This document shows positions 14,293-48,523 of a stretch of 56,583 nucleotides of DNA, in pieces. Position 1 is the stretch's first letter. Each line of letters opens with the position of its first letter. The position numbers and the translations under genes are program-made. This stretch comes from a virus (Duplodnaviria; Caudoviricetes). The stretch is taken from positions 1 to 56,583 of the IMG/VR virus record IMGVR_UViG_3300036785_000557. The stretch is one strand, 5' to 3'. The notes beneath the pieces are model-generated. The model did not search any database and was not told the DNA's origin. It saw only the letters and a program-made list of their open reading frames with translations.

Positions 14293-14960
14293 TTTGCACT
14301 CCCGACAAATGTAAATGTGTTGTTGCCGCCGGATACGATGGTCACAGGAGCATTAGCCGCCAAAGTTTCTATGGCCGCGCTCGATGGGGGATAACAGAGA
14401 AGATTATTCGCACCTCTGTTTAGCACCTTTATGCTGGTGCCAATCGGCAAGGCATTACCGGATAAATTATGGACCGGGAGCAAGACGCCGGTTCCTGCTG
14501 CTACAATCGTCACCACATTGATGTTTGTAGCCAGAAGAAGGGCCGTCGCTTGGTTTGTCCCTGTTGCAGTTAAACCTGTTGCCGATGACTCTGATAAGAT
14601 GCCGCCGATCACCACGTCAGATTCTAGGTTGGCAATTTGGGTAGCGGTCAGCGTTGTAAAAGTGCCTGCTCCGGTAGCTGTGGGAAGTAAAATGCGGACC
14701 CACTGTCCGATGAAAGTGCCATATGGCGTTATATAATTGTAATTGTCATCAAGGTGCGTTCCCAAGGGATTCCAGTAGAAGAATCCACCATTTCCATCGT
14801 TGACAACCGCGATACCTGCCAACATCACCGTCATGCCCGGAAGGCCAGTGATCGTCCGAAGCTGTGATGCGACGGCACCGCCCTGTATAAATGTGTTCAG
14901 GTTATCGGCAGATGCTACACCCTGGCCTTGGATGAACACATTTAATGCGGGTACGGTCAC
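14277..14960 (-). CDS. Short tail fibre/spike with an N-terminal domain paralogous to 14957-16582
   Basis: PALNVFIQGQGVASADNLNTF versus PQLTRYIQGQGVVSGDQLNTF. Confidence 0.65.
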   Translation of the reverse strand: MTVPALNVFIQGQGVASADNLNTFIQGGAVASQLRTITGLPGMTVMLAGIAVVNDGNGGFFYWNPLGTHLDDNYNYITPYGTFIGQWVRILLPTATGAGTFTTLTATQIANLESDVVIGGILSESSATGLTATGTNQATALLLATNINVVTIVAAGTGVLLPVHNLSGNALPIGTSIKVLNRGANNLLCYPPSSAAIETLAANAPVTIVSGGNNTFTFVGSAKWYIS

Positions 14961-16582
14961 GACGATCCTCCACCAACGGTATTCCCCGTGCCTAGATTAC
15001 TCACATTGGTCGTGTTGCCGTTGTACGCATTGGACTGTACGTTCGTCAGGGACGACTGAGCGTTTAGCAGGATGCCGGTGGCCAGACGCTCGAACGTATT
15101 TCCTGAAATCATATTGGCAAGATTGTTCGGGTTTGATCCAATATCTACGCCAAACGCATTCGTGGTTGTGCCGGGGCCAATAAAGGTATTTCCCGTGATG
15201 ACGGTAATCTCATTTGTTGAGATAAAAAAGCCGGCTGCCCCGGTGCCACCGCTTTGTCCGACATACACGAGATTATTTGACAAATTCACGGGACCGCAAG
15301 GCGTCAAACAACGGATGCCATAGTTGGCGCAATTAAATTGGCTATTAACCACGGATAATTCAGCCAGATTTCCTCCGCCCGCTGGAATGTCAACGCCTAT
15401 ATTGCCCCCGGTAAAATTACATCCGGTGATGGATAGACCTTGGATTTGCGTTCCATAGGTTATGCCGGTTCCGATGCTCGTAAAATTAGAATTTGTAAAG
15501 TTGTAGACGACACCAACGGCCGTTGACGTACCCACAATGCCAACACCAAAACCATCGGAAACAAATCCGCCGCCGAATGGACCATGACTATAGCAGTTGA
15601 TATTCTCGAAATTGATTTGAGAAACCGAGTTAATTTGAATGCATTGTTTCCAGTAATTGGTTCCAAAATAGGTATCGTTTCCATAGAACGATAAATTGCT
15701 TAGCAGATTTAATGAGCCGCTGGTTGCATTTGGGAGGTTGGTATCCGTCTGATTTAAGGTAAGCCCGGTGTAGAGCCCTAATCCGCCACCTCTAATCGAC
15801 ATGTCGCAGATCATGCTGGTATTATAAAGGCCGACATAGTTGATGGTGAGGCCATTGCTCGCAGGGAAATTGAGTGTGGAAATATCAATGCCATCGCCTA
15901 CCATGCTGAATGCCCATTCGCCGCCTGGGAATGTCAGAGTGATCGGTGAATTGCAGAGGTAATTGCCTGCCGCTATGCGTGCTTGTTGTATGCTGTTCAT
16001 ACAATAAGTCAGCGTATTCTGAATCGCTATGGTGTCATCCGTAACTCCATCACCCTTGGCCCCAAACCATTTCACAGAAATCGGGAAACTTTGCGTTTCG
16101 CGGTGGTATCTATGATTGGCAGCGTCGATAATGATGGTGCCGCCATTATCGGCGCTGGTAATATCGGTTGGGTTGTAAACGAACATGCCTTCGCCGCCGT
16201 CAGCCAGCGTGTAATATCCTTCTACCCAGACAACAGGCACGGCACCACCGCCGAAGAATGCACGTAATGATGCGATATTGGTAATGGCCACAACGCCAGT
16301 CTGTGAGATATTTAATCGTAACCAAGCCCCCGGCACACCCGGCTGCGGCACAATGACCGTGGCGCCATCATCGGGGCCAAGGGCCGTCGCATTCCAATAA
16401 AATGGGCCAGCGCCACCATCGCCGGGCGCCACATAGCCACGAATAAACACCTGCATACCCGTGACGCCGATCAGCGCCCGGAGCTGCACCACATTGTCAC
16501 AGGTTTGTTCAAACGTGTTGAGCTGATCGCCGGATACGACACCTTGACCTTGGATATATCGCGTGAGTTGCGGCGCGGTCAT
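14957..16582 (-). CDS. Tailspike / polysaccharide depolymerase with a pectate-lyase-like beta-helix
   Basis: ISVKWFGAKGDGVTDDTIAIQ motif followed by Asn/Gly-rich beta-helix repeats. Confidence 0.85.
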   Translation of the reverse strand: MTAPQLTRYIQGQGVVSGDQLNTFEQTCDNVVQLRALIGVTGMQVFIRGYVAPGDGGAGPFYWNATALGPDDGATVIVPQPGVPGAWLRLNISQTGVVAITNIASLRAFFGGGAVPVVWVEGYYTLADGGEGMFVYNPTDITSADNGGTIIIDAANHRYHRETQSFPISVKWFGAKGDGVTDDTIAIQNTLTYCMNSIQQARIAAGNYLCNSPITLTFPGGEWAFSMVGDGIDISTLNFPASNGLTINYVGLYNTSMICDMSIRGGGLGLYTGLTLNQTDTNLPNATSGSLNLLSNLSFYGNDTYFGTNYWKQCIQINSVSQINFENINCYSHGPFGGGFVSDGFGVGIVGTSTAVGVVYNFTNSNFTSIGTGITYGTQIQGLSITGCNFTGGNIGVDIPAGGGNLAELSVVNSQFNCANYGIRCLTPCGPVNLSNNLVYVGQSGGTGAAGFFISTNEITVITGNTFIGPGTTTNAFGVDIGSNPNNLANMISGNTFERLATGILLNAQSSLTNVQSNAYNGNTTNVSNLGTGNTVGGGSS

Positions 16583-24645: not shown

Positions 24646-27201
24646 TTAGCTCCTTTGATTCGGTATTTCTTCGACTATCCCCGACACCTCAAGCCCAGGT
24701 GACCCCATTGCATGTGTCGAAAGCACATAGGACAATCCTAGATAGTTCAAAGTGATGTCCTCGGCGGTTGTTGAGAGCGTCAGCCCCAAGAACATACCCG
24801 CGCCGTCATTCAGACCATACGAAAATACGGGATACCCTATCGTGTACGCATTGGCCAAGGAAAAGGTCATTGGCTCACCATCGTTGAGCGGATAAGAGCC
24901 CGCTTCCGTGTCCAAACTCACAGTCATCGGGATAGGCGCACCGCGCGTCCCGAGGTTCTGCGCCGTTATCGTCGTGGTCCAGACCTGCTTCACGAGATAG
25001 GGCACGCCGGCCCCAAATAACTTGGTGGAAAGCGTGCTGGTGATGGCGCTGCTTGGCGTCTGGAACATCTGGTAGAGATGAGTGCCATCCGTGCCCCAGG
25101 CTGAAAGGTCCGAATTGATCTCCTGCGTGCCAATAAACGTCATTTTTGGCGATTGCGAGGCCACGCACCACCCCTGCTCATCCCACACGATCATTTTATT
25201 GGCCATAGTCAGGGTGACGGGGTTCTGCATGGTCAAAAGCAGCAAATAATACTTTCCTCCAAAAATGTTGGCAGCGGCCGATGACGGGCGCAGGCCACCG
25301 TTCACCGGGAAAACTGCGTTGGTGAACAGTGGGTCGAGATCCTTGGAGATTTTTGTCGCAGCGCCGCCATAGAGCGCGTACACGCCAAGCGCGTTGGCAA
25401 ACACGATGGCACGGCCAAAGTCCTGCACGCTGTCCCGCCATGGTGTGCCCACCTGCGGGTCGGTGTTCTGGTACTGGAATGTGGTGGTGGGCGGATTTCC
25501 GGCCGTATTCACGCCGGAGATGATGGCCACCGAAGAATCACCAAACGGGTAGAGATAACCGTTGCTCTGCCGCAAGTTGGTATAGGTCTGGCGCAGGAAA
25601 CGGTCGGATGAAACATAGATCAACCCACCATCCGAGGTGGCAAAATCACTGATCGAACCGGGTGCCGACACCAGGATTTTGTTGTTGTTGTTTTTTGATG
25701 GCGGTGAGTTTGGCGGCGTCCAAGGCGCTGCGATAAACACCCGCGATTGGAACGTCTCAATGGCGATGCCCGATACGCCGTAAGGCATGAGGCTGACAGT
25801 GGCCGAGGCAGAGCGGTTGATGGCCGATTCCACGATCACCGATGGCGCGGTAAAATAGCCGCTACCGGGGTTCGTGATCGTGACACTGCTAATCGAGGTC
25901 GGTGTTAGCGTGGCAATTGCCCCCGCGCCCGTGCCGCCACCGCCGGTTAGGGTGACGACTGGCGGGGCTGTATAGCCAGACCCGGCGTTGGTGATGGTGT
26001 ACGAGGCCACCGCGCCGTTGGCGATGGTGGCGGTCGCCGTGGCAGTCACGCCGCCCGCCTGTGGTGCTGCAATTGCCACGGTCGGGGCCGAGGTGTAGCC
26101 GGAACCCCCACCCCCCGCGATGCTGGATATGGACGTGGGGGCCAAATTGGCGGTCGCGGTCGCGTTTGTGCCGCCGCCGCCGGTTATGGTCAGCACGGGG
26201 GCCAGCGTATAGCCAGTGCCGCCATTTATGACGGATATGGACCCGATGGTGCCTGGATTCAGTTCGGCTGTTGCGGAGGCCCCAGATCCGCCGCCGCCGG
26301 TAAATGAGACAATTGGTGCCGAGACATAGCCACTGCCTGGATTAGTCAGGGTCACGCTGACGACTTGGCCGCCGGAGATGTTCGCCGTGCCCGAGGCCCC
26401 GGTGCCAATCAGCGCCGCGAAGTTGACGGCCGGCGGGCTGGTATAACCCGAGCCGCCACCCGTGATGACGATGGTGGAAACGCCGGTTGATTGCACATTG
26501 GCGGAAAGCAGCGCTTGGTTATCGGTGCCGCCGCCGGAAAACCCCAGCGTCACACTGTCATTGATCTGGTAGCCCAACCCTGGGTTTGCCACCGCGAGGC
26601 TCACCACTGAACCATTCACCACCTGCGGCACCAGCACGATGCCCGAGCCGGAGCCACCAATAACCTGGATATTTGGTGCGCCTGTATATCCGGTGCCGCC
26701 ATCCGTGATCGTCACGATGGGTGAGATGCCACCGGCTGTGTAAAGAATTGCGCCGTCCCAAACAAAATAAGCGTTCTGGTTGTGGTTGTTGCCAATGAGA
26801 AGATATTGACTGCCCCATTGCGCACAAGCCGGGAGACTTCCACCAGAAAGCATAAAAGTGCCGGGCGCGTTGCTGATAATGGTACTGGCACCTGTCACCG
26901 TGTTGATCTGAACAGCCGTGCCATCGTTGTAGAAAACGGCAACATAATTTGAGCCGTTGATATTGTAGAAGAAGAAAAACACTATGGTTTTTCCAATAGG
27001 TGCGGTCCAAAGCGGGGATGCCACATCCCATAGGGTGCGCAGATTTCCCTCGCCCACCAAAATCCAATTCTCGGAATAGAAGAATTGCTGATCGCGGATG
27101 GCGATACGGCTGGCGGACAGGTTCATGCCCGCGAAGGGGAACATCACCGCTTGCTGGAGGCCCGGTGGTAACCCTAGATCATCACCTTGTCTCCTGGCCA
27201 T
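24646..27201 (-). CDS. Tail nozzle / packaged-DNA stabilisation protein (P22 gp10 / T7 gp12-like) with about 8 inserted GxGY repeats
   Basis: FAGMN start and beta-rich body; synteny after the adaptor. Confidence 0.65.
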   Translation of the reverse strand: MARRQGDDLGLPPGLQQAVMFPFAGMNLSASRIAIRDQQFFYSENWILVGEGNLRTLWDVASPLWTAPIGKTIVFFFFYNINGSNYVAVFYNDGTAVQINTVTGASTIISNAPGTFMLSGGSLPACAQWGSQYLLIGNNHNQNAYFVWDGAILYTAGGISPIVTITDGGTGYTGAPNIQVIGGSGSGIVLVPQVVNGSVVSLAVANPGLGYQINDSVTLGFSGGGTDNQALLSANVQSTGVSTIVITGGGSGYTSPPAVNFAALIGTGASGTANISGGQVVSVTLTNPGSGYVSAPIVSFTGGGGSGASATAELNPGTIGSISVINGGTGYTLAPVLTITGGGGTNATATANLAPTSISSIAGGGGSGYTSAPTVAIAAPQAGGVTATATATIANGAVASYTITNAGSGYTAPPVVTLTGGGGTGAGAIATLTPTSISSVTITNPGSGYFTAPSVIVESAINRSASATVSLMPYGVSGIAIETFQSRVFIAAPWTPPNSPPSKNNNNKILVSAPGSISDFATSDGGLIYVSSDRFLRQTYTNLRQSNGYLYPFGDSSVAIISGVNTAGNPPTTTFQYQNTDPQVGTPWRDSVQDFGRAIVFANALGVYALYGGAATKISKDLDPLFTNAVFPVNGGLRPSSAAANIFGGKYYLLLLTMQNPVTLTMANKMIVWDEQGWCVASQSPKMTFIGTQEINSDLSAWGTDGTHLYQMFQTPSSAITSTLSTKLFGAGVPYLVKQVWTTTITAQNLGTRGAPIPMTVSLDTEAGSYPLNDGEPMTFSLANAYTIGYPVFSYGLNDGAGMFLGLTLSTTAEDITLNYLGLSYVLSTHAMGSPGLEVSGIVEEIPNQRS

Positions 27202-28695: not shown

Positions 28696-29772
28696 TTACT
28701 GCGGGTTCAGATAGTTCGTGTCTGTGACGCCGCCCATCGTGAGCGTCACCACGGCGGCGGTGGTTACGATGCCATTGCCACCAAGGATTTGAATTGTCCC
28801 AGCCGTGGGCACGGCCTCGTATGACCCGCCATCGAGGACATTGCCACCGACCAAAATCCCGCCCGCCGCCGATGTGGGCGCCACGATTTGTGATAGGCGC
28901 GGCCGTGGAAAACCTACCTGCGAGGACGGATTGATATAGGCCGACACGCCAGCGGTAAGCAGCGGTGCTGCCGAGATCGTTACCGCGCCAGCGGCGGCCG
29001 TATAACCCGCGCCTGCCGTGGTGACGGCGTAGCCGGTAACCGCGTCATTCATGATCGCGGTTGCGGCAGCGCCCGTGCCCCCGCCACCCGAGATCGTGAG
29101 AACGGGAACAGCGCCGCCTGCGGTCGGCGTGCCATGGTTATTACAAAGAACCGCCGTGACGGTGCCAAGCCCGGTCAGGCTGGCCACGGCAATGGCATTC
29201 GCGCCCGTGCTATCGCGCGGATCGTTAATCAGCGTCACCTGCGGCGGGAAGGTATAGCCCGCCCCCTGGTCAATGAGGGTGATGGCGGTGACCGCACCAG
29301 CGGTGATCGTCGCAAAGGCCGTTGCCTGGACGCCGGGCGACGGCGGGGCCTGGATCACCACTTCCGGTGGGAATTGGTAATTTGAACCGCCTGAAGGCAG
29401 AGCGATGGTGCTTACCACCTGCCCGAGAATGGCCGTCCATGTTGAGTTACCGGCCGAGGCAACGACAAGCGGCGGCGTGGTGTAGCCCGTGCCTGCGGCG
29501 GTCAGAAGCGCCGCGACGGCGCAGCCGGACGTGTTGGCAAGCCGGGTGTTCACGCCATCGCAATACCAGAAGGCATTGGCATTCGGCGTGGAGGTCGGCC
29601 GCCAGATGTTGCCGATGAAGTCAAAAGATTGGATGTTGGTATATTTGCCAAGGATGGCACGATACCAGTTCGCGGGCGGCAACCAAGCCTGACCAGCTTC
29701 CAAAGCCACCAGATTCGAGCCGAGCGTGCCGAGGTTATTTGCAACCCCAGGACCACCAAAACGAGTAGGCAT
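28696..29772 (-). CDS. Capsid decoration-like protein with GxGY repeats
   Basis: Directly after the MCP and before a terminator; repeated AGTGYTTPP/GAGYT. Confidence 0.55.
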   Translation of the reverse strand: MPTRFGGPGVANNLGTLGSNLVALEAGQAWLPPANWYRAILGKYTNIQSFDFIGNIWRPTSTPNANAFWYCDGVNTRLANTSGCAVAALLTAAGTGYTTPPLVVASAGNSTWTAILGQVVSTIALPSGGSNYQFPPEVVIQAPPSPGVQATAFATITAGAVTAITLIDQGAGYTFPPQVTLINDPRDSTGANAIAVASLTGLGTVTAVLCNNHGTPTAGGAVPVLTISGGGGTGAAATAIMNDAVTGYAVTTAGAGYTAAAGAVTISAAPLLTAGVSAYINPSSQVGFPRPRLSQIVAPTSAAGGILVGGNVLDGGSYEAVPTAGTIQILGGNGIVTTAAVVTLTMGGVTDTNYLNPQ

Positions 29773-38469: not shown

Positions 38470-39108
38470 TCATTCTCCCACTTGTGATTCCAACTCCACT
38501 TCCGGTGCCCTGGCGGAAACGATCTCCCCCAGGATACGCAACACCGTGCTGTGGCCGGTGCCGGTGGCCTTATGCACGGCCCACGGTTTGGCCCCGCCCA
38601 CCAGCATTGACCGCACCAGCTCGTACCGTTCGGGATCGGCTACCTCGATACGCTTAGGCCCTGGCAGCTTGCCCTGGGCTTTGGCCCGCGCCATCCCCGC
38701 CTTCACCCGGTCACGGATCAGTGACCGCTCAAACTCCGCAAACACCCCGATCATCTGGAACATCGCGCGCCCGGCCGGCGTGGTGGTATCGACGTTCTGC
38801 TGGTGCAGGTAGAGATTGACACTGGCCGCATCCAAATCCGCGAGCATCTGAAGCAGGTTCATCACGCTGCGCGCCAGACGATCAACACTCCAGCACATCA
38901 CCACGTCAAACTTTCCTTGTGCTGCTGCTTTCAACATTTGATGCAAGCCCGGCCGAGACCCCCGATCCTTGGCCCCCGAGATCCCGTGATCCGAATATTC
39001 CTTCACAATTTTCCAGCCGCGATGGGCGGCAACGGCGCGCAATTCGCGCTCCTGGTTGAGACATGTCTGATCGTTTGTGCTGACCCGGCTATAGATTGCG
39101 ACCCGCAT
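38470..39108 (-). CDS. Small serine recombinase (resolvase/invertase family)
   Basis: YSRVST (catalytic Ser), SGAKDRGSRPGL, DRLARS, AEFER..IRDR..AG, C-terminal HTH; 212 aa, no large-integrase domains. Confidence 0.93.
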   Translation of the reverse strand: MRVAIYSRVSTNDQTCLNQERELRAVAAHRGWKIVKEYSDHGISGAKDRGSRPGLHQMLKAAAQGKFDVVMCWSVDRLARSVMNLLQMLADLDAASVNLYLHQQNVDTTTPAGRAMFQMIGVFAEFERSLIRDRVKAGMARAKAQGKLPGPKRIEVADPERYELVRSMLVGGAKPWAVHKATGTGHSTVLRILGEIVSARAPEVELESQVGE

Positions 39109-39532: not shown

Positions 39533-39622
39533 TTGAGTCACATTTTTTCAATTTTTTACCTATTGCATTGTTATACTGCGATGTGATTAGTGGTTACCAC
39601 CAGCAACCACGAGAGAGGATCT

Positions 39623-39862
39623 ATGACTTTAGCGACAAAACCCACCACCCCTGCCCCGCCGATCATCTGGTTGCGCCGCCAAGCCGTGGCGGCGGAGCTG
39701 ACTGAGCGCGGCTTTCCCATCAAAGCCGCCACACTCGCGTTCAAAGCCAGCCGTGGCGGCGGCCCGCCGTTCAGAAGGTTCGGTAACAAGGTCTTTTATG
39801 ACCTGACCGAAGCGCTGGCTTGGGCGAGAGCCCAGACGGTGGACGTGACACCGAAGCCGTAG
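39623..39862 (+). CDS. Excisionase/MerR-like winged-HTH DNA-binding protein
   Basis: LRRQAVAAEL..RGFPIKAATLA..ASRGGGPPFRRFGNKVFY...ALAWA. Confidence 0.8.
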   Translation: MTLATKPTTPAPPIIWLRRQAVAAELTERGFPIKAATLAFKASRGGGPPFRRFGNKVFYDLTEALAWARAQTVDVTPKP

Positions 39863-39869
39863 CCCCTTG

Positions 39870-39940
39870 CCTAGAATCTTCCTTTATTGCTAGGCGTAAA
39901 TCGGTAAACCATGAAAGCACCCAAAAGCATGAAAACAATA
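39870..39940. repeat. parS/operator-like octamer repeats at the parA start
   Basis: TAAATCGG TAAACCAT GAAAGCAC ..AAAAGCAT GAAAACAA with 8-bp period. Confidence 0.45.
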
Positions 39941-40588
39941 GTGATCGCCTCACAGAAGGGCGGTAGCGCCAAAACCACGCTAACCGCCCTCCTCTCCGTG
40001 GCGGTGGAACAAGCCGGCGATGGCCCGGCCTGGATCATCGACACCGACTACCAGGGCACTCTGGCCCGCTGGCATGAACGCCGGGAGAGCGAGGTGCCGC
40101 AGCGTGCCCATATGCCGTGGCGGGATCTCCGGGCTGGGCTGGTAACCATCGCGGACAAGCACCGTGGCGCATATTGCTTCATCGACACCGCACCAACGGT
40201 CCAACACGACAACGCCGCAATCATCGACTTGGCCGATCTGGTTATCATTCCCGTACAGCCCTCGCCGCTTGATCTGTGGTCGGCCGCTGAAACCATTCAA
40301 ATGGTGAAAGACTTAAACAAGCCTTTCATGTTTGTCCTCACCAAATCCAATGCACGGGCCAACATCACAGCCCAGACCGTGGCGGCTTTATCGAACCATG
40401 GCCGGGTGGCCGCCAGCTTCATTGCTGACCGCGTGGGCTATGCGGTGGCCATGGCACGGGGCAATACCGCGCCGGAATTACAGCCAAATGGCGTGGCCGC
40501 CGACGAGGTTTCGCTACTTTGGAGTGAGATTAAAGCAACATTTACCCCAATCCGCAAAAGAGCAAAGGAAGTATTAACCCATGGCTAA
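39929..40588 (+). CDS. parA: ParA-family partition ATPase (type Ib, no N-terminal HTH)
   Basis: SQKGGSAKTT deviant Walker A, IDTDYQG, IDTAP, DLVIIPVQPSPLD. Confidence 0.92.
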   Translation: MKTIVIASQKGGSAKTTLTALLSVAVEQAGDGPAWIIDTDYQGTLARWHERRESEVPQRAHMPWRDLRAGLVTIADKHRGAYCFIDTAPTVQHDNAAIIDLADLVIIPVQPSPLDLWSAAETIQMVKDLNKPFMFVLTKSNARANITAQTVAALSNHGRVAASFIADRVGYAVAMARGNTAPELQPNGVAADEVSLLWSEIKATFTPIRKRAKEVLTHG

Positions 40589-40811
40589 GCTAGCCGACAT
40601 TGTTGGGAGCGGTGACCTCTCACCGCGTAGCCAGCGCACCAGCTCACTTCAGCGTGGCGAGGTGCCATCGGATACTCTGGTGCCGATGCAGTTCAAGATG
40701 ACCGAGGATTTTGCCACGTCCTTCCGTGTGGAAGCGACCAAACGCGGGCTGAAATACAATCAATTATTGAAAGAATGCTTCACTCTTTTCCTTAAAGAAT
40801 CAAAGAAATAA
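40581..40811 (+). CDS. Small ParA partner (ribbon-helix-helix centromere-binding, putative)
   Basis: 76 aa with flexible N-terminus, VPMQFKM strand and two helices; overlaps parA. Confidence 0.7.
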   Translation: MAKLADIVGSGDLSPRSQRTSSLQRGEVPSDTLVPMQFKMTEDFATSFRVEATKRGLKYNQLLKECFTLFLKESKK

Positions 40812-40824
40812 AGGATCAAATATG
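40793..40824. repeat. parS-like octamer array
   Basis: TAAAGAAT CAAAGAAA TAAAGGAT CAAATATG. Confidence 0.5.
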
Positions 40825-41112
40825 GACGATCAGATGCCCGAATCCCGATTCGACATCAAATGGAAGGACGCGGGCAGGGAACCGCAATCCACACCCAACC
40901 CGGCGTACCCGAACGGTATAGATCTGGACGCCTCCAAGGGCGCGGCGGTGACATGCGTTGTCGCGCTACCGTACCCGGCGCAGCGGTGTGGTGCCTATGT
41001 CGTGGCGTGCCTCATTTGCGGGATCAAAGTCGCCTGCACCACCGCCGGCCGGGTGGATGATCCCCGTTCAATCCGCGTTGCCTGCCGGGGCCTAAGCGCC
41101 ACACCGAGCTGA
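40822..41112 (+). CDS. Cys-rich hypothetical protein
   Basis: PNPAYPNGIDLD...C...LPYPAQRCG...CLICG..TTAGR.DDPRS. Confidence 0.65.
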   Translation: MDDQMPESRFDIKWKDAGREPQSTPNPAYPNGIDLDASKGAAVTCVVALPYPAQRCGAYVVACLICGIKVACTTAGRVDDPRSIRVACRGLSATPS

Positions 41113-41114
41113 TA

Positions 41115-41157
41115 TTTCTTTACTGCTTTACCGAATTATCTAAATCAACAAAGGACT
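41115..41157. repeat. parS-like octamer array (inverted plus direct)
   Basis: TTTCTTTA CTGCTTTA CCGAATTA followed by TAAATCAA CAAAGGAC. Confidence 0.45.
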
Positions 41158-41161
41158 CACC

Positions 41162-41368
41162 ATGACTGACAAGAAAACCCGCATCCTCCTCATCGCCATT
41201 GCCGGCGGCCTCTGGGCCAATGTGATGGTCTCCAGCATCAAACCCGCGCACGCGGATGACGACACCGACGCGGCGATCCAGCAAATGGCCAGCGACATCT
41301 CGGACATGCAGGGCGACATCAACGCCCTGGCCAACGGCACCTGCACCAACGGAAGACTCTGCAATTGA
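41162..41368 (+). CDS. Small exported protein
   Basis: Signal peptide ending PAHA; acidic coiled coil; C-terminal CTNGRLC. Confidence 0.65.
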   Translation: MTDKKTRILLIAIAGGLWANVMVSSIKPAHADDDTDAAIQQMASDISDMQGDINALANGTCTNGRLCN

Positions 41369-41631
41369 AGGCGGCGCGGCTGATTACCTGCCCGGTGTGC
41401 GGCGGGGCGGGGAAGATCAACCCCGACACACTCTCGCTGGGCGCGCGGTTCACGCTGGAGCGCAAGCGGCTGGATATGACGCAGGCCGAGCTTGCCGTGC
41501 AGATCAACATCGGCCGCGCACAGCTCGCCAATATCGAGGGCGACCGCTCAAAACCGGGCCTGGATGTGCTGATTAAGGCGGCCAAAGTGTTTGGCGTTAC
41601 AACAGACCATCTTTTGGGGATTTCATCATGA
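41365..41631 (+). CDS. XRE-family HTH regulator
   Basis: RKRLDMTQAELA...IGRAQLANIEGDRSKP..DVL...AKVFGVTTDHLLG. Confidence 0.85.
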   Translation: MKAARLITCPVCGGAGKINPDTLSLGARFTLERKRLDMTQAELAVQINIGRAQLANIEGDRSKPGLDVLIKAAKVFGVTTDHLLGISS

Positions 41632-41816
41632 GCGACCAGATGCCGGCAACATTTACGCTCAATTTCTATGCGCCGGAGATGTTTCGTCTCCTGCTTAAGC
41701 TGGAAAGGCACTGCCGAGTCAAAAGCGTCACGCGCCGCCCGGTACACGCGGCCGAGGGTAAACTCATCCGCGAGCAGATCCAAGAGCTGCTGAAGGAAAT
41801 GGGTGCGGTGATTTAA
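41628..41816 (+). CDS. Hypothetical protein
   Basis: ATGA-coupled. Confidence 0.5.
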   Translation: MSDQMPATFTLNFYAPEMFRLLLKLERHCRVKSVTRRPVHAAEGKLIREQIQELLKEMGAVI

Positions 41817-41876
41817 TCACCGCACTTAATCGAGACGGCAATTTAATCGTGACAGGGTTTTCGAGAGGGAAACACC

Positions 41877-42137
41877 ATGGAACCAGAGGGTTTTACACCA
41901 AAGGCGGAACATGTGGCGCTCTACAATGAGCTGATCGAAGTGGTGAAGCGGCACGCCGATCAGATCACGGCCATGGAAATCTTAGCCGTGGCGGCCAACT
42001 TTGTTGGCCAAATATCCGCGCTGCAAAACAAAAGCTTGATGGATGAGCAGATGATGCTGGATCTGATTATGTTCAACATCGAAGCCGGCAGCAAAGGTGC
42101 GATCCGCAAGATGAACCGGACGGAGGGCAACGCATGA
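41877..42137 (+). CDS. Hypothetical protein
   Basis: GAGGG SD; helical. Confidence 0.6.
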   Translation: MEPEGFTPKAEHVALYNELIEVVKRHADQITAMEILAVAANFVGQISALQNKSLMDEQMMLDLIMFNIEAGSKGAIRKMNRTEGNA

Positions 42138-42361
42138 GCGAGTTTATCCCTCTTGTAGATATTCTATTGGAAATCGGAAAACATTTTGAACCGTATGGGA
42201 CTATGGCAGAATTTAGCCGGGAACACGGCGTTTCAGACGAATATATCCGGCTGATCGTCAGAGGGGAGCGAACCATCCCGAATTGGATGCTTGAGCATTT
42301 TGGATATGAGCGCATCGTCAGGTATCGAAGAATCGAGAAACCCCGAGGGAAGGGGCGATGA
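42134..42361 (+). CDS. Small HTH protein
   Basis: MAEFSREHGVSDEYIRLIVRGER..P. Confidence 0.65.
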   Translation: MSEFIPLVDILLEIGKHFEPYGTMAEFSREHGVSDEYIRLIVRGERTIPNWMLEHFGYERIVRYRRIEKPRGKGR

Positions 42362-42600
42362 CCGATAGATGGTTTGTCGAGTATCGGCTGGCCTGGATCA
42401 GAGAGAGTGTGCTGATCTTTGGCCAGATCAACCGCGAACACATCATGTTGAAATTCGGCGTCTCACAGCCACAAGTCTCACATGACGTTAAAATGGCGAT
42501 GTTCCGCTGGCCGGATCTCATGACCTACAACAAATCAAGCAAGCGGTATGAGCGCATTGGGCCGCCGCCGGCTAAGTTGACGGGCCATGAAAGAGCGTGA
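42358..42600 (+). CDS. Stand-alone winged HTH of the CapW/BrxR (WYL regulator) type
   Basis: RLAWIRE....FGQINREHIMLKFGVSQPQVSHD......WPDLMTYNKSSKRY matches the N-terminal wHTH pattern of CapW/BrxR; no WYL domain. Confidence 0.7.
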   Translation: MTDRWFVEYRLAWIRESVLIFGQINREHIMLKFGVSQPQVSHDVKMAMFRWPDLMTYNKSSKRYERIGPPPAKLTGHERA

Positions 42601-42958
42601 GGTCGTAACCCCACTGGGCTATTTCAGGACCGGCACCGAGGCGGCGCTGGCGCACGGGGTCTCGCGCCAAGCTGTCTCCCTGGCCATCCTCTCAAGCCGC
42701 AAGCATTGGTCATTCTACAGCGAGGAGCGGCCAGAGGATGTGCCACACATCCCGAGGATGCCGCCGCCCCCACCACCGCCGCCACGCCCTGGTACGCATT
42801 ACTGCCCCGGTGAGACCGCCGGTCTGAAGCTGTGCGGGCAGACCGCCAAATACGAGGAAGACGGCCGGTTCTATTGCTACCGGCATCTGCCATCGCGCAT
42901 CGCCGCCGTGAACGAGCGGTGGATGCTGAACCCGCCCAAGCGCCGCAAGCCCTTCTAA
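42587..42958 (+). CDS. Hypothetical protein (NUMOD-like HTH, poly-Pro linker, Cys/His cluster)
   Basis: EAALAHGVSRQAVS; CPG...CG...YCYRH. Confidence 0.5.
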   Translation: MKEREVVTPLGYFRTGTEAALAHGVSRQAVSLAILSSRKHWSFYSEERPEDVPHIPRMPPPPPPPPRPGTHYCPGETAGLKLCGQTAKYEEDGRFYCYRHLPSRIAAVNERWMLNPPKRRKPF

Positions 42959-46565: not shown

Positions 46566-47117
46566 TCATTCGTCACGTAACAGCGCATAGGCTTTGCTCT
46601 CGTGACTTGTGGCTTGCCGCTCTCGTGTGGTGCGTCCGATGTCGGCCAGCTCTCGCGGTGGCAGGGGTGCGCGTGGATTGACATAGGGGGCTTTGGTGAC
46701 TGGCCTAGCGTGCCGTGTTGCTGGCGTGGCGACATCGTGCAAATTCTTTTCGGCTTCAGCTATAGCTGCGAGTTTTTGCCTATGCAGCGTACCAGCCCGG
46801 CCGCGCATTCCCTTGTCACGCATGGTTGCGGCATATTTGGCGCGTTTGGCTGCAAGGGCTTGATATCGGCTGGCAAGCAATGGCAGCAATGCCGCAATGG
46901 CTGGAGTCACCTCGCGTTTAATGTGAGTCCATTGGCTGGAATTCATGCGCGCAAGGGCAGACAATGCCATGTCATCCAATGCCTTAGCCGGACATTCAGC
47001 TTGCCAGTAAGAAACAGCGATGCACCATGCCGCGCGATACGCGGCGCCGGACATGAATTTAAGCGGCGGATGTCGGTCTATTATTTCCAGGGGGCAGGGA
47101 ATGCGGCCGGTTTTCAT
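46566..47117 (-). CDS. YdaU/DUF1376-like protein
   Basis: MSGAAYRA...I...YWQ..C...LDD..L..LAR....QW pattern; start taken at MKTGRIP. Confidence 0.55.
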   Translation of the reverse strand: MKTGRIPCPLEIIDRHPPLKFMSGAAYRAAWCIAVSYWQAECPAKALDDMALSALARMNSSQWTHIKREVTPAIAALLPLLASRYQALAAKRAKYAATMRDKGMRGRAGTLHRQKLAAIAEAEKNLHDVATPATRHARPVTKAPYVNPRAPLPPRELADIGRTTRERQATSHESKAYALLRDE

Positions 47118-47253
47118 GCTGCCATATATAGCACGCGTGCGCGCATATGGGCGCATGTGAGTAAAAATGGCTGTTTCCCTAGTGTTTTCCGGCCATGCTG
47201 CATTTATTTTCAAATAAAATGCTTTTTTTCGTATTTTGTTGGATTAATACGTG

Positions 47254-47284
47254 TTGACATGTTTTGAGAGATGTTGTTTAAGCT
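47254..47284 (+). promoter_or_regulatory. Candidate promoter of the early gene cluster
   Basis: TTGACA-19-TAAGCT in AT-rich divergent DNA; spacer longer than consensus. Confidence 0.45.
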
Positions 47285-47333
47285 TACTCATGGAAGCACG
47301 GCACTGGCCGGGCAGAACCAACGGAGAAACCGA

Positions 47334-47576
47334 ATGACTGACTACACACCGCGAGAAGTTAGCTCGAAAGATTTGGCAGTATTGAAAGCGGCGGATATTG
47401 CCGGAATGGATTATGCCAAGGTTATTGTTTGTGAAAAGAATTTTGCTTTAGTTTCTGCCGTTGGCGGGGCTGGTACTACTGACTTTCTAAACTGGCGCGA
47501 GACTTGGTATTTTAATGGTGACGTGTGGCAGATTCGTGAGCTTATGAAACCGCCGGTCGATCCAAGCGAAGCGTAA
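47334..47576 (+). CDS. Hypothetical early protein
   Basis: GGAG SD. Confidence 0.6.
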   Translation: MTDYTPREVSSKDLAVLKAADIAGMDYAKVIVCEKNFALVSAVGGAGTTDFLNWRETWYFNGDVWQIRELMKPPVDPSEA

Positions 47577-47668: not shown

Positions 47669-48523
47669 ATGAGTTTTATAAACTCGCGGGGTAGGCTTGG
47701 GGCTTACACGCTGACAAATGACCAAATGCGGCATTATGCGCCGTCTATCTTTGCGGTGGACAAGCACACAAGCCGTTCTGAGCGTTACACGTACATTCCG
47801 ACGATTGAGATCGTTGATGGATTGCGCGCCAACGGTTTCGAGCCAACATTCGTGCGCCAAGGCAAGAGCCGGATTGAAGGTAAAGCCGAATTCACCAAGC
47901 ACATGATTCGCTTTCGGTGGCAGGGAGCAGAGTCGCAAACTGGTGTGCGCCGCGTTGGCGACGTGTTTCCAGAGGTGGCGTTGGTCAATTCACACGACGG
48001 CACAAGCTCATATCAGCTCAACGCCGCTCTTATGCGCCTTGTCTGCCTTAATGGGATGATGGTTTCAGATCGTCAATTCGCTTCCATCAAATTGCCGCAC
48101 AAGGGCGATGTTGTGAGCAAAGTCATTGAAGGCAGTTACGAAGTGATTGAAGAATCGCGTCGGGCTTTGCAGGTAGCGCGTGAATGGTCTGGCATCGAGC
48201 TTAAGCCGGAAGAATCGCGATTGCTTGCGGCGGCCGTGCATCAGGTACGGTTTGCGGATAGCGATGGTAATGTGGACACGCCCATACAGCCGGAGCAGTT
48301 ACTCGGCGTGCGCCGTCACGATGACCGGCCAAGTGATTTGTGGACAGTCTCAAATCGTATCCAGGAAAACGCGATACGCGGCGGATTGAGTGCGATGGGC
48401 CGCGATGCCTTAAACCGGCCGCGCATGACGACGACGCGCGAGGTACGCGGCATTGATGGCGACGTGAAGCTGAATAAGGCCATTTGGGAATTGACGGAAA
48501 GAATGGCGGCGCTAAAAAGCTAA
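47669..48523 (+). CDS. DUF932 domain protein
   Basis: APSIFA...H.SRSERYTYIPT, FTKHMIRFR, NSHDGTSSYQL...RLVCLNG, DLW...NRIQEN.IRGG. Confidence 0.9.
   Translation: MSFINSRGRLGAYTLTNDQMRHYAPSIFAVDKHTSRSERYTYIPTIEIVDGLRANGFEPTFVRQGKSRIEGKAEFTKHMIRFRWQGAESQTGVRRVGDVFPEVALVNSHDGTSSYQLNAALMRLVCLNGMMVSDRQFASIKLPHKGDVVSKVIEGSYEVIEESRRALQVAREWSGIELKPEESRLLAAAVHQVRFADSDGNVDTPIQPEQLLGVRRHDDRPSDLWTVSNRIQENAIRGGLSAMGRDALNRPRMTTTREVRGIDGDVKLNKAIWELTERMAALKS

Follow-up and report, generated by a model that had tools for sequence, protein, structure and literature searches.

The locus and the stand-alone wHTH gene

The window analyzed here spans all 56,583 bp of IMG/VR virus record IMGVR_UViG_3300036785_000557, which has direct terminal repeats and is rated 100% complete. 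On its + strand, at 42358..42600, lies an intact open reading frame (ORF) that encodes an 80-amino-acid winged helix-turn-helix (wHTH) protein, and our main finding is that this protein corresponds to the DNA-binding head of the bacterial defense regulators CapW and BrxR, exists without their sensor domain, and belongs to a large, mostly viral family of similarly short proteins. The start of the wHTH gene overlaps the TGA of an upstream 75-amino-acid ORF as ATGA, and its 3' end is overlapped for 14 nucleotides by the next ORF, 42587..42958. An initial annotation, made by a model that ran no database searches, had described the ORF as intact and ATGA coupled and had taken it to be a copy of the CapW/BrxR wHTH that is carried by a phage and can only bind DNA. 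The first of these descriptions was confirmed, and the second is supported, with the phage origin borne out by the completeness of the virus record and by its large terminase, portal, and major head genes, which are found on the strand opposite that of the wHTH gene. The gene run to which the wHTH gene belongs and the resolvase gene that lies outside it are as follows.

39590..42958, + strand: run of 11 tightly packed same-strand ORFs, including the wHTH gene (ORF map and family scans)
+ strand: 90-amino-acid ORF, the first listed of the run (ORF map)
39911..40588, + strand: ParA, in the run (family scan)
40581..40811, + strand: ribbon-helix-helix-like ORF, in the run (weak match, below the cut-off)
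40822..41112, + strand: 96-amino-acid ORF, followed in the run by a 68-amino-acid ORF (ORF map)
41365..41631, + strand: XRE helix-turn-helix (HTH) gene, in the run (family scan)
+ strand: 62- and 86-amino-acid ORFs, between the XRE HTH gene and the 75-amino-acid ORF of the run (ORF map)
42134..42361, + strand: 75-amino-acid ORF 5' of the wHTH gene, possibly a Cro/XRE-like HTH (Atlas lead only)
42358..42600, + strand: stand-alone WHD_BrxR-type wHTH gene, 80 amino acids (sequence match and AlphaFold2 model)
42587..42958, + strand: 123-amino-acid ORF 3' of the wHTH gene, with a proline run and a Cys-rich C terminus (no family match)
38470..39108, - strand: resolvase (family scan)

Sequence and fold kinship with CapW and BrxR

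Every residue of the CapW/BrxR pattern claimed in the initial annotation was found in the wHTH protein, namely, R10 and L11, I14, G22, I24 to R26 (INR), F33 to S36 (FGVS), Q39, S41, D43, P52, Y57, S60, and K62 to Y64 (KRY); the number of dots in that pattern is wrong by one from I14 to G22 and by two from D43 to P52. When the single protein sequence was searched against the PDB (177,635 sequences), CapW entries 7tb5 and 7tb6 were the top two matches, both of them weak (E values of 0.068 and 0.14). A profile of the short forms, composed of 23 relatives (the wHTH protein and 22 others) and having 17 invariant columns, matched three CapW chains at E values of 1.8e-6, 7.3e-6, and 8.8e-4, while for BrxR the match obtained by sequence comparison was weak (7t8k, E value of 0.052). 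The match to CapW and BrxR spanned profile positions 4 to 64 of 69, which correspond to the N-terminal ~60 residues of the ~299-amino-acid chains. With a mixed profile that combined short and full-length forms, the BrxR and CapW chains were matched at E values of 1e-52 to 4e-69, and the wHTH domain could be aligned with the full-length proteins without any gap from RW (residues 4 to 5) to KRY (residues 62 to 64). Family PF26109 (PF26109.1; WHD_BrxR in the Atlas) is recorded among precomputed annotations for the wHTH protein and for all 22 of its near relatives. The protein had no match at an E value of ≤1 in Pfam, PHROGs, PADLOC, or NCBIfam, the Pfam release being older than PF26109.

The AlphaFold2 model of the wHTH protein (pLDDT of 87.3) has the order helix 1, strand, helix 2, helix 3, and wing of a classic winged helix. 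In this model, the helices are formed by residues 3 to 21, 26 to 33, and 37 to 50, the last of which is the recognition helix, the wing strands are formed by residues 55 to 58 and 63 to 66, and the tail (residues 67 to 80) is disordered. When the model was compared to the PDB using Foldseek, ranks 1 to 13 were all occupied by CapW and BrxR (TMq of 0.73 to 0.79). The N-terminal wHTH of CapW (7tb5, 7tb6, and 9c5g) was matched with a TMq of 0.73 to 0.78 and 22 to 31% identity, and BrxR (7t8k/7t8l and 7qfz) had the same wHTH fold as the phage protein, with a TMq of 0.74 to 0.79. The best unrelated wHTH was F-112 of SSV1, with a TMq of 0.57, so that in the structural comparison proposed by the initial annotation the best matches were CapW and BrxR and not unrelated wHTHs. 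Among the viral structures of BFVD, the sole match at an E value of ≤0.001 was an uncharacterized 97-amino-acid protein of Pantoea phage vB_PagM_LIET2 (UniProt A0A411AW77; TMq of 0.79), which differs in being only 18% identical to the wHTH protein. Taken together, these results demonstrate that the wHTH protein is a CapW/BrxR-type wHTH and that the likeness is well beyond chance.

A family of short forms without a sensor domain

The claim that the protein stops before any WYL or WCX domain was also correct. After the wing, the chain continues for only 16 residues, and no match to the WYL domain (PF13280) was obtained at an E value of ≤0.01 in any frame of the 56.6-kb record, in a search that gave matches in control genomes. 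Full-length relatives (P0176 to P0178) are composed of PF26109, PF13280, and PF26107; the short forms end where these full-length proteins run into the linker, and the phage protein has nothing beyond the wing. Compared to CapW and BrxR, it thus lacks the linker helices, the WYL sensor, and the WCX domain, it cannot respond to single-stranded DNA as CapW does, and it is encoded in a phage gene run rather than beside a defense operon.

A survey of stand-alone homologues, another check proposed by the initial annotation, revealed that the short form is a large, mostly viral family. The closest relatives make up 23 clusters of 68 to 97 amino acids, and the whole family comprises 266 clusters (50% identity) at an E value of ≤1e-3, or 46 at ≤1e-10. 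Within the best 150 of the 266 clusters, 146 were no longer than 150 amino acids (115 of ≤100 and 31 of 101 to 150 amino acids), and the four longer ones carried either unrelated additions (R67-DHFR-like and DUF551) or no recognized domain. Fusions of the short wHTH to small modules of phage type were seen, namely, with an R67-dihydrofolate-reductase-like C terminus (P0037; 271 amino acids), with DUF551 (P0163), and with an N-terminal extension (P0022). Full-length wHTH-WYL-WCX proteins appeared as more distant matches only. An ORF could be matched in 52 of the 56 fetched loci (the window region included), and all 52 were short, at 59 to 223 amino acids with the longest possible start. In the Atlas clusters of 77- to 82-amino-acid proteins, PF26109 is present in 96 to 100% of members, and 50 to 77% of members are viral. 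The short form is not a recent truncation but a large, old, mainly phage-borne family of proteins of 65 to 100 amino acids.

The end of the wHTH protein at the point where full-length proteins continue into the linker is also what would be left by decay of a full-length regulator gene, with the wHTH gene as a functionless 5' remnant. Against such an origin, hundreds of diverged short relatives stop at this same point, just after the KRYE motif, no WYL remnant was present in any frame of the record, and the downstream gene overlaps the end of the wHTH gene. Because the short form is conserved across the whole family, the pseudogene reading was rejected, and we consider its chance of being correct to be negligible.

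DNA-contact residues

In Sm CapW, the R32A substitution and the replacement of S42, Q45, and S47 by alanines each abolish DNA binding (PMC9122588). The residues corresponding to R32, S42, Q45, and S47 in the gap-free alignment are R26, S36, Q39, and S41 of the phage protein, so that the residues required for DNA binding by CapW are kept. R26 is invariant among the 23 relatives, and conservation is at least 90% at both S36 and S41. Ten DNA-contact residues are listed for the BrxR of Acinetobacter, in which R38 makes base-specific contacts (PMC9122589), and in the alignment with full-length forms 6 of the 10 are identical in the phage protein (R10, S36, Q39, K45, K62, and Y64). The base-reading R38 of this BrxR is, in contrast, replaced by Q37, at a position that is variable across the short-form family. 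With the CapW/BrxR contact residues kept and position 37 variable, the fold and the backbone DNA contacts look intact, and the likeliest specificity residue appears to differ between family members.

Model of the dimer

The initial annotation had cautioned that the protein may not dimerize without WCX. The homodimer model obtained a score of 0.62 (0.61, 0.62, and 0.67 in individual runs), and the highest-scoring of three controls had 0.00. Among proteins of solved structure, the mark applied to this score was reached by 20 of 30 that are pairs and by 1 of 23 that are single chains. Contacts agreed to at least 93% between the runs, and the pLDDT of the partners was at least 86. The caution is thus eased, with the model supporting but not proving pairing, and the support is possibly an echo of the solved CapW/BrxR dimers. 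The modeled interface consists of residues 16 to 17, 19 to 21, 27 to 28, 31 to 32, 34, and 70 to 74. Within it, residues 16 to 21 read ESVxIF in the short forms and FRLFWE in the full-length forms, each conserved within its own group, a pattern that fits a pairing surface specific to the short forms.

Full-length dimers, which are domain swapped, are reported to be held together mainly by the linker helices, WYL, and WCX (PMC9122588 and PMC9122589). Any dimer of the phage protein must use another surface than that of CapW. The wHTH domains lie side by side in the CapW/BrxR dimers (PMC9122588), and the self-interface modeled for the phage protein is on the helix 1/helix 2 face. Both of these observations would be in keeping with interference at the protein level, in which the solitary phage wHTH forms a pair with that of a host CapW or BrxR protomer and distorts or poisons the host dimer, acting as a de-repressor or a locker rather than as a competitor for DNA. 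This is very improbable in our judgment, given that the helix 1/2 face differs between the two groups and that the full-length dimers are held mainly by parts that the phage protein lacks.

Occurrence of the short form

The loci fetched were on 9 viral contigs, 2 genome contigs, and 42 metagenome contigs, and wherever the context of a short wHTH gene could be read, it was that of a phage. The gene follows a CI/Cro pair in L006, is near terminase in L009, and is in prophages with an integrase in L012, and in G629 it is beside head genes, between methylase-like and replication-type ORFs (both named by eye). Between loci, only the wHTH gene is common, and its neighbors vary. No homologue was found by tblastn at an E value of ≤1e-3 in 50,697 GenBank phage records.

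The only neighbor to recur bears on a further explanation, in which the wHTH protein would serve DNA architecture rather than transcription, either with a small serine recombinase, as its accessory or directionality factor, or in the resolution, partition, or replication of a phage-plasmid. Winged-helix excisionases are an established precedent for such a role. In 7 of 52 loci (L056, L058, L065, L067, L068, L070, and L073), or in 7 of 45 groups after near-identical loci were merged, a serine recombinase gene (222 to 262 amino acids) follows the short wHTH gene on the same strand at a distance of 0 to 1.2 kb, with at least 1.5 kb of downstream sequence being available in 34 of the 52 loci; in L067, the two genes overlap. 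The window itself has its resolvase (38470..39108) and ParA (39911..40588) genes within 4 kb of the wHTH gene. We nevertheless think this role improbable: no recombinase is near in the other 45 of 52 loci, the seven that have one may be a single phage lineage, and the window resolvase, encoded at a distance of 3.2 kb on the opposite strand, is only 24 to 28% identical to the seven serine recombinases.

For the class of G001, a Rhodobiaceae metagenome-assembled genome (MAG), 23 of 401 sampled genomes had matches, in 24 places; 22 of these places were in frames of 288 to 400 amino acids, one was a weak match in a 942-amino-acid frame, and one, that of G001 itself, was short. For its order, 31 of 401 sampled genomes had matches in 35 places, 2 of which were short (G001 and G629). 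In PLSDB, 29 plasmid records were matched, the organisms listed were Alphaproteobacteria, and most of the matches were under genes annotated as having a WYL domain. The exception examined was plasmid pP24_g of Phaeobacter inhibens P24 (NZ_CP010703.1; L036/L037), which encodes a 75-amino-acid short form (WP_102869814.1) at positions 40118 to 40345 of the record; a similar match was found on a plasmid of P. piscinae. The 41-kb pP24_g is a phage-plasmid, having RepA/RepB together with terminase, portal, protease, tape measure, and tail genes, and P. inhibens P24, a harmless marine bacterium, is with this phage-plasmid a cultured system for testing the short-form family. An acyl-homoserine-lactone synthase and receptor pair is also carried by pP24_g.

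Relation to full-length host regulators

Compared to 11 full-length alphaproteobacterial proteins, the wHTH protein was 39 to 46% identical over 59 to 66 residues. Each of the four full-length relatives whose surroundings were examined (L032 to L035; G393, G076, G260, and G012) adjoins defense genes, these being BrxA/B/C of the bacteriophage exclusion (BREX) system, HmaA/B, HmaC/B, and a ThsB-like TIR gene. A quick tree was made from 67 columns of 176 domain sequences, 13 of the 189 input sequences (P0176 among them) having been dropped for poor domain coverage; nearly all of its full-length rows come from one bacterial class, and 4 of its 173 inner branches were strongly supported and 111 unresolved. 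All 13 full-length sequences were on one side of a single branch (support of 78), and the wHTH protein was placed, with weak support, inside a group of 144 short forms. The quick tree and the ranking of relatives speak for an old lineage of short forms and not for a gene stolen recently from a host. The tree gave no support to a recent capture of a host regulator, the nearest relatives all being short and forming a separate group.

None of the three bacterial genomes with a short form (G001, G002, and G629) held a full-length partner, a result that argues only against an obligate link between the two forms, as G001 and G002 are MAGs and ~0.2 co-occurrences were expected by chance. G001 has no WYL domain at all. 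A relative of the full-length type, in a long frame, was present in 22 of the 400 other sampled genomes of the class and in 29 of 399 of the order.

These results bear on the proposal of the initial annotation that the wHTH protein keeps host defense promoters off. In such a role, it would be a signal-blind mimic whose dimer occupies the CapW/BrxR-type operators of the host, so that BREX, cyclic-oligonucleotide-based antiphage signaling system (CBASS), Hma, and Thoeris-type operons stay at a basal level after phage DNA or DNA damage has released their own repressor. If this were true, the induced "priming" of defense would be blunted, or an induced prophage would be spared. A rationale for it is in print: CapW senses single-stranded DNA (PMC11662680), and derepression of BrxR-controlled BREX is reported to let cells overwhelm a phage inhibitor on a later infection (bioRxiv 10.1101/2025.11.13.688357). 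The homology is specifically to defense-linked regulators, with the DNA-contact residues kept, and the full-length relatives examined all adjoin defense genes. The family is mostly viral and found among variable small genes, in an accessory-like placement, and the homodimer model passed its controls. On the other side, the nearest relatives are all short, with the full-length proteins beyond a separate branch of the quick tree, and an identity of 39 to 46% is low for a common site specificity, with Q at the variable position 37 in place of R38 of BrxR. The zero-of-three co-occurrence, in a small sample, adds the limited argument given above, and CBASS protection did not require CapW-dependent induction in the case examined (PMC9122588). 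The proposal is unsupported so far, and we regard it as a rather unlikely explanation.

Search for an operator

A perfect 23-bp inverted repeat lies in the gene run of the wHTH gene, 530 bp upstream of it.

41803..41825: perfect 11+1+11 palindrome, GTGCGGTGATT-T-AATCACCGCAC, over the stop codon of ORF 41628..41816

Three copies of TTAATC(A/G) extend from the center of the palindrome into the 60-bp gap before ORF 41877 (41803 to 41850), and there is no T-run after the palindrome on the + strand. The palindrome is a candidate protein-binding site or RNA hairpin whose link with the wHTH protein is unproven. Upstream of the full-length alphaproteobacterial genes, palindromes with a CATAT core were present in 6 of 11 cases (L020, L021, L024, L025, L026, and L030), ~45 to 100 nucleotides before the start of the wHTH domain; one of these palindromes precedes the BREX-linked gene in L034. 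Promoter-like and terminator-like sites were no commoner than in shuffled sequences.

Neighboring genes and other features of the record

The gene order of the run 39590..42958 suggests an early or maintenance operon. Neighboring ORFs had no informative family match in Pfam, PHROGs, PADLOC, or NCBIfam, no PADLOC match was obtained at an E value of ≤1 for the wHTH protein and its two overlapping neighbors, and no homologue of the 75- or 123-amino-acid neighbor adjoined short wHTH genes in the 55 other loci. The 123-amino-acid ORF (42587..42958) has a run of eight prolines, a Cys-rich end, and an N terminus that is HTH-like by eye. Together with the XRE gene (41365..41631), the wHTH gene and its two overlapping neighbors would make four small putative DNA-binding genes within ~1.6 kb. 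A 46%-identical homologue of the 96-amino-acid ORF (40822..41112) is present in L050, and in metagenome locus L059, a homologue (800 to 1669) with 48% identity to the DUF932 protein of the window (47669 to 48523) is encoded ~600 bp downstream of the short wHTH gene; both are signs of common accessory-gene pools.

Besides the resolvase, the window encodes a KTSC-domain gene, a replication initiator, DnaB, and RecT. No tyrosine integrase was found among the window ORFs scanned, and because of this, together with ParA and the resolvase, a phage-plasmid lifestyle is suggested. The best match of the terminase among GenBank phages was 37.8% identical, to an uncultured phage. Matches of ParA in plasmids were tried as a means of assigning a host and were of mixed taxa (the best in Pseudolysobacter at 63.6% and Burkholderia at 57%), and no host was assigned. 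An AT-rich gap at 47094 to 47270, which has three overlapping palindromes (47094 to 47119, 47120 to 47133, and 47138 to 47155) and a TTGACA, precedes the + strand ORF 47271..47576 and the DUF932 gene 47669..48523 and may be a regulatory region or an origin. On the - strand, the regions 24646 to 27201 and 28696 to 29772 encode two structural proteins with repeated domains, matched by many PHROG virion structural protein, baseplate, and tail-fiber families; the repeats may be Ig-like decoration or fiber modules. A pectate-lyase-like tail-spike candidate is encoded at 14957..16582.

Probable action and target of the wHTH protein

The homology of the wHTH protein, its fold, its kept DNA-contact residues, the absence of a sensor, and the size and viral bias of its family are established by the results presented above. 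We give roughly an even chance to the reading that it is a constitutive, dimeric CapW/BrxR-type DNA binder that acts on phage promoters, and its pairing, DNA binding, timing of expression, and target are inferred as follows. The protein would be made from a run of small genes that lies next to genes for partition and regulation, in a temperate phage or a phage-plasmid. It would pair via the end of helix 1, strand 1, and helix 2, and the dimer would bind a palindromic double-stranded DNA site using recognition helix and wing contacts of the CapW/BrxR type. Binding would be constitutive because the protein has no WYL/WCX part for release by a ligand; neither single-stranded DNA nor another ligand could release it, and its activity would follow its own level of expression. 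The targets would most likely be the phage's own promoters, for example, with the protein acting as an autorepressor or switch of the accessory or regulatory run in the manner of Aca proteins, rather than host defense promoters.

Several observations favor a phage target. The wHTH gene is among small HTH genes (XRE, 41365..41631, and the Cro-like lead, 42134..42361) and beside maintenance genes, other phages place the short wHTH gene after a CI/Cro pair (L006) or beside head genes (G629), and the tree puts the wHTH protein among short forms only. A conserved small regulator among variable neighbors is the Aca-type pattern, and the wHTH protein resembles Aca-type autorepressors in being small, DNA binding, and retained in phages while the small genes around it in its gene run vary. 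It differs from them in belonging to another HTH family and in having no neighbor known as a counter-defense gene, and no operator was found at the head of its gene run.

Other observations weigh against the reading of a dimeric binder of phage promoters. No inverted repeat stood out at the head of the run 39590..42958, and neither half-site was enriched in the window: the CATAT-type half-site GCGCATATG, modeled on the regions preceding the full-length genes, had 21 matches versus 27.9 expected, and the palindrome half-site GTGCGGTGATT had 28 versus 20.4 expected, with 6 of 100 shuffles being as high. Dimerization rests on a model that may echo the solved CapW/BrxR dimers. The place of a core phage regulator is usually fixed, but the wHTH gene occurs in varied places with varied neighbors, as accessory or counter-defense genes do. 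In addition, the only detectable cellular relatives are defense linked, with all four full-length proteins examined being beside BREX, Hma, or ThsB-like TIR genes.

Meaning of the short-form family

Of the switches that control bacterial anti-phage defense, the WYL-type repressors BrxR and CapW are the best understood, and recent work reports that releasing such repressors primes cells against phages that carry inhibitors (bioRxiv 10.1101/2025.11.13.688357). Full-text searches on BrxR/CapW and on phage-encoded WYL repressors found no paper on the short-form family. Term searches within papers returned no phage-encoded homologue in the text; the supplementary tables of the BrxR/CapW papers may list some. 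The wHTH protein belongs to a known family of regulators but lacks their sensor, and automatic annotation already picks it up. The results presented here show that the DNA-binding head of these defense regulators also exists without a sensor, as a large and mostly viral family. If its members bind host operators, phages could freeze defense at its basal level by blocking the rise in expression that single-stranded DNA triggers, a form of counter-defense via the control of transcription. If they instead bind phage DNA, they would make up a class of phage regulators that is both new and common, and this would be a hint that the DNA-binding head of the defense regulators is shared with, or derived from, phages.

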